Source: Escherichia phage FL31. From it: 64,000 nucleotides of DNA. The translations under genes were made by a program, and so were the position numbers. The stretch lies in sequence record PP400782. One strand, written 5' to 3'. The notes beneath the pieces are model-generated. The model did no database searches. It saw only the letters and a program-made list of their open reading frames with translations, and was not told the origin of the DNA. The stretch's first letter is position 1; each line of letters starts with the position of its first letter. Shown piece after piece: positions 4,564 through 8,649 of this stretch.

Positions 4564-5520
4564 TTATTTGAAAGGTTTTACCATATGGAAATTTTGTTTG
4601 AAACGTTTGACGTAATCGTCATGTCCTAAGCTTTGGTACATACTTACTACTTTGCTGTAGTTTTCCCAGGCGTATTCACGGAACCAACCGGAGGTGATGC
4701 TTGTACAGACCTTTTCCAATGCCGTCATAAAACTGGCTTCAGGGTTAATTTTAAAGTCATTAGGAATCTGAGAACGTTCTAATGCTAATACACATGATTC
4801 TTCATATACACCGGCCAATTTGACCATTTCCGGTAATGATTCGAACTTCTCGCGTGAGGTCATGACTTCAGAACCATCTTTCATGTAAAATGTATACGCT
4901 GGACGGTCTGTTAGTGCAATGGCTTCATGAATAGTATCATGGTCATATGTATAGATGTCATCTTTAAAGAATGCGCTTTTAGAAGTGTCAAGAACCGGGT
5001 GAGCATAATTCAAGGTTTCTTTCTGGCGTTTCAGCATAATTTCAGTAAGTTCATCGTTCAGTGTAACACCTTTACCACGAAGATACTGAATATGGTTCAT
5101 AGTCTTTAAAAAGAATGGATTATTTTTCTTGAAACGATGAGACATCTTAATTGCAAGACACATCTCAGGAGTTGCCCAGTAAAACCCGTTAAAACGATCT
5201 TTAGTCAAATTTTTCTTGGCGTATTTTAAAAGGTCATAAGAAGACGTGAAATCTTCAGGAGTGAGTTCACCGACTAATTCACGGACATTAGTGATTGCCG
5301 GAACAATATATGCTTCAAAATGAGTTTCGCGTCCATTATGGAAGCATTTGAAAACTTGGACATCAGGGTTATCTTGGTGAACATATACACCCATCATTTG
5401 ATTTTTGAATGCATTCCAAGAACCTTGGTCCGCAATAAAGTCCCAATCACTATTTTTAATAGCGCTAGAATCAATAAGACCGTGATAGTGAAGTGCACGA
5501 GAACCAATAACTAACATCAT
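4564..5520 (-). CDS. Hypothetical protein (318 aa), possible nucleotidyltransferase-like N-terminus
   Basis: ATG 5518-5520; N-terminal IGSRALHYHG...DWDF loosely resembles G[GS]...DxD; no confident family. Confidence 0.55.
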   Translation of the reverse strand: MMLVIGSRALHYHGLIDSSAIKNSDWDFIADQGSWNAFKNQMMGVYVHQDNPDVQVFKCFHNGRETHFEAYIVPAITNVRELVGELTPEDFTSSYDLLKYAKKNLTKDRFNGFYWATPEMCLAIKMSHRFKKNNPFFLKTMNHIQYLRGKGVTLNDELTEIMLKRQKETLNYAHPVLDTSKSAFFKDDIYTYDHDTIHEAIALTDRPAYTFYMKDGSEVMTSREKFESLPEMVKLAGVYEESCVLALERSQIPNDFKINPEASFMTALEKVCTSITSGWFREYAWENYSKVVSMYQSLGHDDYVKRFKQNFHMVKPFK

Positions 5521-5851: not shown

Positions 5852-6049
5852 TTAGCAAGAATAACTAGATGATACCCAGCCTTGAACAGTAATACTATTG
5901 TGGGATAATGAGATCGCGTCCTGGAGATTCAGACCTGCGTTATCTTCAATCCATAATGTAACTTCTTCGCGTTCTTCTGTTGCAATTTGGAACAGGTTTT
6001 CTAGAGCAGCTACTGCGGTACGTACAGCACAATCTAATTCACGAGACAT
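5852..6049 (-). CDS. Small acidic protein, paralogue 1 of tandem triplet ending WVSSSYSC
   Basis: 65 aa; ATG 6047-6049 with RBS TAAGGAAACC; C-terminal GWVSSSYSC shared with two upstream paralogues. Confidence 0.5.
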   Translation of the reverse strand: MSRELDCAVRTAVAALENLFQIATEEREEVTLWIEDNAGLNLQDAISLSHNSITVQGWVSSSYSC

Positions 6050-6058
6050 ATGGTTTCC

Positions 6059-6331
6059 TTAGCAAGTGTGAGAAGATGCAACCCAACCACCAGTTTCGAG
6101 GCTCAGGTTGTAGTCATATTGGTAAACGTCCGCCCATTCAGCATAGCCGTTTTTTGTACAACGTTCAAGATCGGCTTTAAGATGTCCGGGTGAATGATAG
6201 GTTCCACCCATACCATAAGCTGGGTACAAGTTGAATGTTGTGTTTTGTTTATCAGCAATTTCTTTGGCAGCCTCAATAGCTGCATAGATTTTTGCTACAG
6301 CTTCGGCCAGTTCGGTTTGTTCTTTAGACAT
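6059..6331 (-). CDS. Small acidic protein, paralogue 2 of tandem triplet ending WVASSHTC
   Basis: 90 aa; ATG 6329-6331 with RBS TAAGGAATC; Ala-rich N-terminal helix; C-terminus GGWVASSHTC. Confidence 0.55.
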   Translation of the reverse strand: MSKEQTELAEAVAKIYAAIEAAKEIADKQNTTFNLYPAYGMGGTYHSPGHLKADLERCTKNGYAEWADVYQYDYNLSLETGGWVASSHTC

Positions 6332-6340
6332 AATGATTCC

Positions 6341-6646
6341 TTAGCACAACGCAGAAGACGAAACCCAAGCACCTTCAGTAATAACGTATCCATTACCTTC
6401 ACGCTTAACATCGCCGCCATTATTTTCAATTTCATCTTTCATCCACTGGGATACGATTTCACCCTTAGGATAATAAGTACGACCGCTACCATAATCACCT
6501 ACAGAAAATGATACGGCATATTGGTCTGCGATCTTTGTTGCTTCTTCTTCGATACGTTCAGCTTGATTCAGAAGTTTATAAATTGCATCTGAAGCGGATT
6601 TGGCATCATTAAACTCTGGTACTTTAATTTCAATAATCTTACTCAT
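6341..6646 (-). CDS. Small acidic protein, paralogue 3 of tandem triplet ending WVSSSALC
   Basis: 101 aa; ATG 6644-6646; early promoter GTTTAC-N18-TATAAT at 6706-6735; C-terminus GAWVSSSALC. Confidence 0.55.
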   Translation of the reverse strand: MSKIIEIKVPEFNDAKSASDAIYKLLNQAERIEEEATKIADQYAVSFSVGDYGSGRTYYPKGEIVSQWMKDEIENNGGDVKREGNGYVITEGAWVSSSALC

Positions 6647-6744: not shown

Positions 6745-7137
6745 TCAGTTGAGGCTTTTGCATCTTATTTCCTTAACGAATTCCATAGCTTCTTCATATT
6801 CATACTTTTTAACAGCTTCATCATACTGAGCTTGGGCTTTTGCGCACTGAACTTTCCATTCTCTTAATCTGGCTCTGTGATGACGTCCTTGGTACCAATA
6901 TCCCATCCAGTTAATAGGCATTAATAAAAACGGTATAATAAGTGGTGCGACGAACATTAATGAAAATGCTGCATCAGACGATATAACTTCACTAGAATCT
7001 AAAACAGCTCCTATAATCATAAAGATTAAAAATGCTAAAGCTAAAATAGGGCCAAATAATACTTCATTTGGGATTAATTTACGCTTGTATTCATACGCCC
7101 AGGGCTTAATTGGCATGTATAGGGTTGGCTTTGACAT
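6745..7137 (-). CDS. Hypothetical membrane protein (2 TM helices, basic C-terminal tail)
   Basis: Trimmed to ATG 7135-7137 (MSKPTLYM...); ORF-track start is TTG. Confidence 0.45.
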   Translation of the reverse strand: MSKPTLYMPIKPWAYEYKRKLIPNEVLFGPILALAFLIFMIIGAVLDSSEVISSDAAFSLMFVAPLIIPFLLMPINWMGYWYQGRHHRARLREWKVQCAKAQAQYDEAVKKYEYEEAMEFVKEIRCKSLN

Positions 7138-7708
7138 ATTCTCTACATTCCATAATAAATTGCTCAAGGATTAAATTGTTAGTGAAATTAGGACTAACAA
7201 CCATAGTTTCATAAAGCGCATCAATAGCACTTAAAGCATCAGCTCTTTTAAGCAAAGGCTTGCCTTCATACATAGTTTCAGAATCGACGATTAACGTAAA
7301 GTAATATTTTTTATTATCGACTAGAACTTCTGTATCGATATAAAACATATTAGACCTTAAAAGCTTATCTCTAAAACCATAATAATCTTCAGAGCGTTCG
7401 CTGATATATTCCCATTCAGTGTTTAAACAACAAACAGACCATGTAGGAGCAACGAAATCAGTGAATCTAATATCATGGTCTGCAACTAGTTTAGCAATAG
7501 CTCCGATATCATGAATCATAATACCTGGGGCTAATAAAGATTTTCTGTTATGGCTAGCCGTTTTCTCGGTGGTCTCATAAGAAGCCGACCAGTACCATTT
7601 ACGACCGGTTGCGGCATATCGTAATGAATCAACTAAAGACGTAGGTGGATTTACCTTATTTCGGAACTCTTCGAACATTGAGTCAATATCATTATTTTGG
7701 TTTCGCAT
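7106..7708 (-). CDS. Hypothetical protein (200 aa)
   Basis: Trimmed to ATG 7706-7708 with RBS AAAGGAG; track start is TTG. Confidence 0.55.
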   Translation of the reverse strand: MRNQNNDIDSMFEEFRNKVNPPTSLVDSLRYAATGRKWYWSASYETTEKTASHNRKSLLAPGIMIHDIGAIAKLVADHDIRFTDFVAPTWSVCCLNTEWEYISERSEDYYGFRDKLLRSNMFYIDTEVLVDNKKYYFTLIVDSETMYEGKPLLKRADALSAIDALYETMVVSPNFTNNLILEQFIMECREYVKANPIHAN

Positions 7709-7731: not shown

Positions 7732-7749
7732 GGAGGACCGGAGTCCTCC
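7732..7749 (-). terminator. Hairpin plus T-run after ORF 7758-8351
   Basis: Minus strand GGAGGAC-TCCG-GTCCTCC then TTTTGG. Confidence 0.5.
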
Positions 7750-7757
7750 GTATTATT

Positions 7758-8351
7758 TTATTTCAAAGAGTTAATATATTCTTGTACATCAGCAGAAGTG
7801 GTTTCGACACCGACCGGAGTGCCATTGAATGTTTCGACACGAGTCAGAGTGTCTTCGATATCAACCTTAGTCAGTGCAGCGATTTCAATTACATCATCGG
7901 CCGTAGAGATACCAAGGGCATTGGCTGCTCGAGTTTCACGAATGTATTCGAGTTTGATTGCCAGGTTCTGACGAGCATCGTCAAGTTCAACCACCTTACG
8001 AGCAATTTCAATTCGCATAGCGGCATACCCGTCAGCTTTTGTATTAAGTTGTTCGGCAGTTCGACGATACAGAAGACCAAGCTTAGCATGCATGGTAACA
8101 TCTTGTCCTTCGGCCAGGAGCTTACGAATTTCACGTTCCTTAGAAGCGGCTTGCTTGTTCTTTTCATTAACAAGTTCGCGAATACGTTTTTCTTCATTAA
8201 TAGATTTAACAGAAGCCGTTTTTAGTTCTTTGATTTGGGTAATCAACTTATCTGCAGCTGCGTTATACTGTTCTTCAACAGTCAGATTTTTAGCCATAGC
8301 AGTACCCAGTTTAGTGCGGATGAATTCAACAAGTTTCTTCAGTGTGTTCAT
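7758..8351 (-). CDS. Hypothetical coiled-coil protein (197 aa), faint PspA/IM30-like character
   Basis: Trimmed to ATG 8349-8351; heptad-rich Lys/Glu/Ala/Arg composition; hairpin terminator directly downstream. Confidence 0.5.
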
Positions 8352-8421
8352 ATTATTACCTTTCAATTGGTGGTTTATTATCCAACGAGAGCATTATACT
8401 CTGCTCTCAAGAGTTTGTAAA

Positions 8422-8649
8422 TTATTTTTTAATCAAATTGACATAAAACTTGGCGTCTTCGGGGTGCATGCCTTCGCAGTATTCTTCAACCATGAACTTC
8501 TTAATAGCTTCATAAGGACCACTCAGATTAAGCTCAGTTGTCCAGAACTTGGAATCTTGGGCTGAATCGATACGAACTTCAGGGTGACGGTTGCGAATAA
8601 CTTCTTCGGTGTATTCATAATCAACGACATCAATACTAACTGTAGCCAT
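8422..8649 (-). CDS. Hypothetical protein (75 aa)
   Basis: ATG 8647-8649; GAGGAAAA RBS; early promoter TTTACA-N17-TATAGT at 8680-8708. Confidence 0.5.
   Translation of the reverse strand: MATVSIDVVDYEYTEEVIRNRHPEVRIDSAQDSKFWTTELNLSGPYEAIKKFMVEEYCEGMHPEDAKFYVNLIKK

Follow-up and report, generated by a model that had tools for sequence, protein, structure and literature searches.

The gene analysed here lies on the minus strand at positions 7758-8351 (coordinates including the stop codon) of a 64,000-nucleotide stretch of DNA from Escherichia phage FL31 (sequence record PP400782), a stretch that we call the window. It encodes a protein of 197 amino acids (aa) that corresponds to the product of gene e.6 of phages T4 and T2 (family phrog_1203) and appears to be a diverged member of the PspA/IM30 proteins within the ESCRT-III superfamily. 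Its open reading frame (ORF) starts with an ATG at 8351 and ends with a TAA stop codon at 7758-7760. A putative ribosome-binding site, GAAAGG (8359-8364, minus strand), can be read from the sequence 7 nt 5' of this ATG. An alternative ORF call is longer and begins at a TTG at 8366, overlapping GAAAGG (8364-8359). Since this TTG falls within the ribosome-binding site and all the homologs in the family alignment begin at the methionine of MNTLKK, we take the ATG at 8351 as the true start, and the coordinates and length given in an earlier reading of this DNA from its letters alone (hereafter the sequence-only reading) were right. Its description of the protein as Lys/Glu/Ala-rich was also fair (12.2% Ala, 10.7% Glu, and 9.6% Lys), with Leu (10.2%) to be added to the list; the net charge is approximately +1. 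The FL31 protein shares 88% aa identity with T4 and T2 e.6, e.5 and e.4 follow downstream as in T4, and the window DNA is 98% identical to that of the Mosigvirus vB_EcoM_G2469. By these comparisons, FL31 is a Mosigvirus-like phage and the gene its ortholog of T4/T2 e.6. Full-length homologs were retrieved by tblastn from 1,101 phage records, and the single e.6 sequence matched phrog_1203 in PHROGs, where its annotation is "function unknown".

Upstream of the start codon we found a candidate sigma-70, T4-early-like promoter (8393-8421, minus strand), composed of TTTACA at 8421-8416, a 17-nt spacer, and TATAAT at 8398-8393, with an A-rich stretch before it. This site matches the consensus at 11 of 12 positions and is the best one in the region scanned. 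The total number of promoter-like sites in that region was not above that of shuffled sequences, which speaks against the assignment; because of this, it rests on the position and quality of the site together with expression data from T4. In time-resolved omics of T4 infection, e.6 was classed as an early RNA and a middle protein (PMC9697503, supplementary files 4 and 6), and its listing with a middle protein class indicates that the T4 protein was detected. Both the promoter directly upstream and the T4 data agree with the sequence-only reading, which had called the product an early protein. With homologs in more than 1,100 records and both RNA and protein detected in T4, e.6 is confirmed as a real, expressed gene, more than a chance ORF. 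Between e.6 and e.5, 8 nt after the e.6 stop codon, lies a GC-rich intrinsic-terminator-like hairpin, GGAGGACTCCGGTCCTCC, followed by TTTTGG (7732-7749, minus strand, also scored on the plus strand). In the near-identical phage vB_EcoM_G2469, the annotation lists this element as a terminator, and a terminator after e.6 has been tabulated for another T4-like phage (PMC5931544). Flanked by an early-type promoter and a terminator of its own, e.6 looks like a transcription unit of a single gene. The hairpin, perfectly palindromic and with a T-run on each side, was reported by the scan on both strands, so that it could end transcription arriving from either direction.

Homology of the e.6 family to PspA and Vipp1

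The likeness of e.6 to PspA has been published twice and is, therefore, already known. The announcement of Klebsiella phage Metamorpho (2021) described gp163 as a T4 e.6 homolog with an HHpred match of 99.9% to E. coli PspA, 4WHE_A (PMC7862958), and a 2022 study of Salmonella phages identified phrog_1203 (Gp_125 of the Kuttervirus SeF3a) as a PspA homolog and proposed an anti-abortive-infection role for it (PMC9409062). We found only these two in-silico mentions in the literature, and no experiments on e.6 or any phage PspA. A 2025 review covering ESCRT-III-like systems of bacteria and archaea says nothing of phage-encoded homologs in its text, and in a 2024 phylogenomic survey of PSP, viral lineages appear only as columns of a phyletic figure. 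We add here an explicit chain of homology with controls and the collinearity of both proteins over the whole length, including the tail. We also show that the e.6 family is nearer to the PspA/Vipp1 consensus than to the host PspA, that e.6 has the layout of an independent transcription unit, and that it contrasts with its fast-evolving and narrowly distributed neighbours.

We worked with two family profiles, one built from 23 closer e.6 homologs (A1) and the other comprising 43 sequences, with distant members added (A2). Against the PDB, A1 gave weak collinear matches to Synechocystis Vipp1 (E 0.4-4, residues 6-139 on 6-141). An exhaustive A1 search of 1.84 billion representative proteins retrieved 45 matches at E <=0.001, which made up a compact family of 195-209-aa proteins plus fragments. 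Two of these matches, P0177 and P0183, were full-length (E 3e-20 and 2.8e-17, respectively) and scored 35.1 and 39.0 bits on the Pfam profile PspA_IM30 (PF04012), above its gathering score of 33.9 bits; five A2 members, these two among them, matched this profile individually. The closest phage matches of P0177 and P0183 are Ackermannviridae (Taipeivirus, Kuttervirus), to which P0183 is 77-85% identical and P0177 only 42%. P0177 also matches T4 e.6 by tblastn (E 5e-8) over 97% of the P0177 length. Some of the distant members of the family start with MGILSRIKEF, MSIFQRLKSIF, or MNIFKRLFRLF, sequences reminiscent of MGIFSRF and MGLFDRL, with which PspA and Vipp1 begin.

The PspA signal emerged only once the distant members from the exhaustive search had joined the profile. 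With A2, the top eight PDB matches were Vipp1/PspA (E 4e-5 to 1.4e-3, residues 1-146 on 1-147). The comparison of A2 with a PspA/Vipp1 alignment by hhalign yielded a probability of 92.4% (E 5e-7) in local mode and of 91% (E 1.3e-7) in global mode, the latter with e.6 residues 1-197 on PspA residues 1-214. These probabilities are likely underestimates because the PspA side of the comparison was shallow (Neff 1.8), the published HHpred value being 99.9%: the search for E. coli PspA homologs gave only relatives at least 86% identical, and a profile scan of genome contigs for diverse PspA sequences gave only Enterobacterales. As a control for coiled-coil bias, we scored with A2 a thousand shuffles preserving either composition or heptad register. 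The real Vipp1 sequence obtained 27.1 bits, compared with a mean of -3.3 (standard deviation 2.4) and a maximum of 7.3 for the shuffles, and the reversed Vipp1 sequence obtained -4.8 bits. We conclude that the e.6 family very probably belongs to the ESCRT-III superfamily, as a remote and very diverged homolog of its PspA/IM30 (Vipp1) branch. The resemblance to PspA/IM30 that the sequence-only reading had noticed by eye holds, then, as remote homology, by way of the family profiles, the intermediates passing the PF04012 threshold, the predicted fold, and Foldseek; the family-profile searches, whose failure it had named as a refutation, matched Vipp1/PspA specifically and collinearly. Since the family fits the general PspA/Vipp1 consensus and not the host protein, e.6 does not seem to be a recent capture of an enterobacterial pspA gene.

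Two AlphaFold (AF2) runs, on the A1 and A2 alignments, agreed with each other (pLDDT 76.7 and 78.7) and predicted a mostly helical protein, as the sequence-only reading had expected, with helices at residues 2-22, 25-80, and 86-145 followed by short C-terminal ones. Residues 2-22 (8286-8348, minus strand) are predicted to form an amphipathic cationic helix, aligned with alpha0 of PspA/Vipp1 (residues 1-22). The hydrophobic moment of e.6 residues 1-18 is 0.43, compared with 0.41 for PspA 2-22 and 0.50 for Vipp1 2-22. Across the family, the N-terminal segment has a mean hydrophobic moment of 0.42, versus 0.25 elsewhere, and the first 24 residues carry a net charge of +3.3. The modelled protein thus has an amphipathic N-terminal helix of the PspA alpha0 type, for which membrane binding would be expected by analogy.

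Residues 25-145 (7917-8279, minus strand) are predicted to fold as an antiparallel helical hairpin, made of helix 25-80, a turn at 81-85 (EGQDV), and helix 86-145. This part has a pLDDT of 85-97 in both runs and aligns with the alpha1-alpha2/3 hairpin of PspA/Vipp1, with its turn at the same alignment position. According to the models, e.6 possesses the long alpha1-alpha2/3 hairpin core of the PspA/IM30 and ESCRT-III protomer, and no globular, non-coiled-coil fold was predicted, the other outcome that the sequence-only reading had named as refuting its idea. As to the heptad periodicity in that reading, the hydrophobic pattern of residues 25-145 has its top Fourier power at a period of 3.5, but the peak is modest. 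The C-terminal region, residues 146-197 (7761-7916, minus strand), is modelled with low confidence as short helices, with a terminal helix predicted at 186-196. In the global hhalign alignment, a 12-residue stretch of this tail falls on PspA LDEAMARFESFE (start of alpha4) and a 13-residue stretch on PspA ADDAISEQLAQLK (end of alpha5). Altogether, the predicted order of elements is that of alpha0, alpha1, alpha2-3, and tail in PspA and Vipp1.

The most conserved stretch of the family, residues 88-98, comes just after the turn, where Vipp1 has its LAREAL motif in the alignment. Also highly conserved are KLEYIRE, towards the hairpin's end, G147, and the nearly invariant C-terminal Y192 and L196. 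In Vipp1/PspA polymers, the C-terminal helix of a subunit lies against the hairpin of the adjacent one; by analogy, that the hairpin-tip region and the terminal helix are both conserved in e.6 is compatible with such a subunit packing. We found no transmembrane segment in e.6 (maximum KD19 1.06). Foldseek searches of the predicted structure against the PDB had Vipp1/PspA in all the top ten positions (best E 5e-4), followed by archaeal CdvB2. In a viral structure library, the top matches were e.6-family proteins of Citrobacter, Erwinia, Serratia, and Klebsiella phages; next came a Megaviridae Snf7-family protein and, further down the ranking, an Acinetobacter phage protein annotated as PspA/IM30.

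Neighbourhood and distribution of e.6

The homologs of e.4 and e.5 occupy positions 6745-7708 of the window and evolve much faster than e.6: compared with T4, they retain 53% and 47% identity, respectively, versus 88% for e.6. Each of them occurs in ~640 phage records, all of the Tequatrovirus or Mosigvirus type, whereas e.6 is found in ~1,100-1,180 records of both Straboviridae (with Escherichia, Klebsiella, Aeromonas, Yersinia, Citrobacter, and Erwinia hosts) and Ackermannviridae; most of the other lineages that carry e.6 have neither e.5 nor e.4. Given this wide spread and 88% identity, next to fast-diverging and narrowly distributed neighbours, e.6 seems to be a self-contained and strongly constrained gene. 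We considered a conserved e.6-e.5-e.4 module acting as a PspA-anchor system and rejected it, since e.5 and e.4 are confined to Tequatrovirus and Mosigvirus and diverge faster, a terminator separates them from e.6, and no e.5 or e.4 homologs lie beside the Ackermannviridae genes.

The sequence-only reading had placed e.6 among phage membrane mini-proteins, which turns out to be only weakly true: among the 12 neighbouring ORFs, transmembrane-like segments occur in the e.4 homolog (6745-7137) and in none of the other 11. The e.4 homolog has two of these segments, followed by a charged helical tail. Pfam, NCBIfam, and PHROG scans assigned no known function to the neighbouring ORFs. Directly upstream of e.6, positions 8422-8649 (minus strand) encode a Phage_FRD3 family protein (Pfam PF05798, E 9e-38); as T4 has e.7 at this place, the neighbourhood upstream of e.6 is not conserved. 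Further downstream, three small ORFs lie in tandem at 5852-6646 (minus strand), namely 6341-6646, 6059-6331, and 5852-6049, coding for 101, 90, and 65 aa. All three end in G-x-W-V-(S/A)-S-S-x-x-C at their extreme C-terminus (EGAWVSSSALC, TGGWVASSHTC, and VQGWVSSSYSC). Two of them match the C-terminal part of phrog_899 and one phrog_4882, PHROGs with no annotated function. In T4, their place is taken by e.3 and e.2, which are predicted membrane proteins, yet the three ORFs of the window have no transmembrane-like segment.

Many GenBank and UniRef entries name members of the e.6 family "host specificity protein" and one "tail completion protein". These names look like propagated misannotations, since neither the sequence, the predicted fold, nor the early expression supports a virion or host-range function.

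Proposed role and alternative explanations

The most likely role of e.6, in which we have moderate confidence based on the analogy with PspA and Vipp1, is that of a phage-supplied peripheral membrane-stabilising polymer made early in infection. That the e.6 product is a membrane-binding polymer at all is, by the same analogy, likewise somewhat probable. Soon after infection, the protein would bind the inner face of the cytoplasmic membrane via its N-terminal helix and hairpin and then self-assemble into carpets, rings, or rods stopping proton leakage, in the manner of PspA and Vipp1. T4 shuts off host transcription and the host psp operon is sigma-54-dependent; with T4-type phages, the host Psp response would consequently be unavailable during membrane stress, and the phage would bring its own effector in place of the silenced response. 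Only a weak or partial induction of host psp has been reported during T4 infection (PMC12795941). The damage to be countered might come from DNA injection, superinfection, phage membrane proteins, or abortive-infection systems that depolarise the membrane. The e.6 protein would protect the proton-motive force needed for phage development. Moreover, loss of proton-motive force triggers holins, so that a membrane-tightening factor would safeguard the timing of lysis by keeping the holin from firing early. A broader proposal, that T4-type phages deploy their own ESCRT-III-superfamily membrane-repair polymer early to keep the inner membrane energised and that the holin clock, lysis inhibition, and abortive-infection resistance depend on it, is one that we advance only tentatively.

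Several observations weigh against this role or against the homology on which it is built. The single e.6 sequence had no PspA_IM30 match in Pfam, even at E <=10, and no match in the PDB; its Pfam, PDB, and NCBIfam searches returned only sub-threshold coiled-coil noise. None of the 23 closer relatives in A1 matched PF04012 when scanned against Pfam, and canonical bacterial PspA was absent from the 45 matches found at E <=0.001 among 1.84 billion proteins. The Pfam threshold, however, gauges fit to the present PF04012 model and is no structural trait of the PspA/IM30 proteins. E. coli PspA itself scored only 5.4 bits with A2, the best shuffle reaching 6.3. Helix 2-22 was modelled at a low pLDDT (45-57). 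For alpha4 and alpha5 the picture is divided: the tail alignment and the conserved helix 186-196 with Y192 and L196 are there, yet ~20 residues of this region are missing in e.6 with respect to PspA in the global hhalign alignment, and residues 150-180 have a pLDDT of 44-59. Because of this shortening, PspA-type polymer contacts may not be preserved. Finally, no link to the Psp partners PspB, PspC, PspF, or LiaI-like proteins was found among the neighbours by Pfam, NCBIfam, or PHROG, and e.6 is not encoded with PspF, PspB/PspC, or LiaI/LiaF-type anchors as operon-level Psp systems are.

The weak matches of the single sequence, which include spectrin, laminin, HAUS6, and an Rz-like spanin, would also be expected if e.6 were a generic long coiled-coil or BAR-like protein, for example a scaffold, cytoskeletal, or virion-associated one, and its likeness to PspA a matter of convergence or composition. 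The records naming homologs "host specificity protein" or "tail completion protein" point in the same direction. However, the profiles single out Vipp1/PspA, with alignments that run collinearly from the first residue to the C-terminus and scores far higher than those of shuffles preserving composition or heptad register, and two family members pass the Pfam PspA_IM30 threshold. In addition, the structural-sounding names come without supporting evidence in the records seen, and early transcription is atypical for virion proteins. We therefore regard a generic coiled coil as highly improbable. A mimic of PspA that disturbs the Psp system of the host and does not act on lipids, be it by binding PspF or PspB/PspC, by co-polymerising with host PspA and poisoning it, or as a decoy for host factors targeting PspA, fares little better and seems to us very unlikely. 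The hairpin region of PspA carries regulatory contacts with PspF, and the e.6 hairpin aligns with PspA 1-144, the region crystallised as 4WHE, which would fit PspF binding. PspA can also be tied to immunity, since in Bacillus the host PspA has been reported as the conjugation target of a CBASS cyclase (PMC11153139). Nevertheless, e.6 is only marginally similar to E. coli PspA, whose 5.4 bits lie inside the range of the shuffles, and the fit of the family to the generic PspA/Vipp1 consensus, instead of to the host's protein, disfavours mimicry of a host interface. Repressing PspF would, besides, gain little because T4 shuts off host transcription. Moreover, psp induction by T4 is already weak (PMC12795941).

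A further alternative shares its biochemistry with the membrane-stabilising role and differs from it in purpose: a PspA-like sealing of the membrane would neutralise abortive-infection effectors that depolarise or permeabilise the inner membrane, such as Rex-like systems or the transmembrane effectors of signalling systems. Such a counter-defence function has been proposed for the Kuttervirus homolog, a gene present in 4 of 15 genomes of this genus in PHROGs (PMC9409062); so patchy a distribution is typical of accessory genes engaged in an arms race. A counter-defence gene would also fit with expression that is early and driven by a promoter of its own, as well as with the movement of e.6 between phage families independently of its neighbours. 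In Straboviridae, in contrast, e.6 is broadly and strongly conserved (88% between genera, against ~50% for the neighbours), which is usual for housekeeping-type functions, and it matches no PADLOC model or known anti-defence family. We consider counter-defence as the main purpose of e.6 rather unlikely.

If the broader proposal is right, e.6, among the last widely conserved T4 genes still uncharacterised, would become the first functionally defined viral PspA and offer a simple genetic system for PspA-type polymers. T4 is the best-studied virulent phage, and e.6 is still a "conserved hypothetical" in most records and a "host specificity protein" in many. It was reportedly in 2021 that PspA and Vipp1 were placed, as bacterial members, in the ESCRT-III membrane-remodelling superfamily, and the way in which they protect membranes in cells is still debated. 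That a minimal (197 aa) and partner-less PspA-like protein is strongly conserved in two families of large myoviruses suggests that a tight host membrane is a general need of long lytic programmes. With one gene, one promoter, and easy phage genetics, e.6 would be a tractable test bed for PspA-type membrane sensing and sealing, and it could also serve to address whether PspA-type proteins counter phage defences that target the membrane. A practical benefit is a corrected annotation, PspA/IM30-like instead of tail or host-range.

Comparison with known systems

No sequence-level signal was detected between e.6 and the Snf7 families of ESCRT-III proper (Snf7/CHMP, archaeal CdvB), which, unlike e.6 as modelled, have no PspA-type alpha0 helix, and no Vps4-like ATPase partner turned up in the scan of the neighbouring ORFs. 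Membership in the BAR-domain superfamily, defined by a banana-shaped three-helix bundle and by sequence family, does not apply to e.6. An Rz-like spanin was rejected as well: e.6 has no membrane anchor (maximum KD19 1.06), and its spanin-type matches are sub-threshold (phrog_1267, E 0.059; TIGR03495, 15.6 bits against a cut-off of 92.75). Neither e.6 nor e.5 or e.4 matched any PADLOC model.

The e.6-like proteins of Ackermannviridae (Kuttervirus and Taipeivirus, including Gp_125 of Salmonella phage SeF3a) belong to the same family, phrog_1203. They are similar in length (202-204 aa) and have full-length profile matches (E 1e-17 to 1e-20), but they are only 23-24% identical to the window protein and, in contrast with it, pass the Pfam PspA_IM30 threshold. 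Their gene lies between those for a primase/helicase and a DNA ligase, unlike e.6, which lies next to e.5 and e.4. It is directly followed by a gene for a ~186-aa protein with an N-terminal transmembrane helix, unrelated to e.5 and e.4, as seen in Klebsiella phage T751 (L085, 4651-5211) and Salmonella phage GEC_vB_GOT (L084, ~4650-5219). This protein could be a membrane partner of the PspA-like one. In GEC_vB_GOT, its annotated start lies ~110 nt inside the PspA-like gene and is probably placed too far upstream.

E. coli PspA (PDB 4WHE; PF04012) and e.6 have the same helix order over their whole length in the global hhalign alignment, and both are of the peripheral type without a transmembrane segment, as predicted in the case of e.6. 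Their direct similarity is marginal (5.4 bits), and e.6 is not a recent copy of the host gene. It also differs from E. coli PspA in having no nearby pspF, pspB, or pspC genes and shorter C-terminal helices, and in being preceded by a sigma-70 early phage promoter, whereas the host psp operon has a sigma-54 stress promoter.

The closest known relative in our comparisons is Vipp1/IM30 of Synechocystis (sll0617; PDB 7O3W, 8QFV, and 6ZVR). The two proteins are only ~17% identical, and e.6 is shorter (197 aa, compared with 266-277 aa for the Synechocystis PDB chains), ending at the position aligned with PspA residue 214 and with ~20 residues missing in alpha4/alpha5. Unlike cyanobacterial Vipp1, e.6 is encoded by a virulent phage, outside any thylakoid context. 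Nevertheless, Vipp1 is both the best profile match of e.6 (27.1 bits, E 4e-5) and its best Foldseek match (E 5e-4). An amphipathic helix at the N-terminus and a long hairpin, both predicted in e.6, are common to the two; their turns coincide in position (L..GE/Q) and are closely followed by a conserved motif, HAKLGLL in e.6 and LAREAL in Vipp1.

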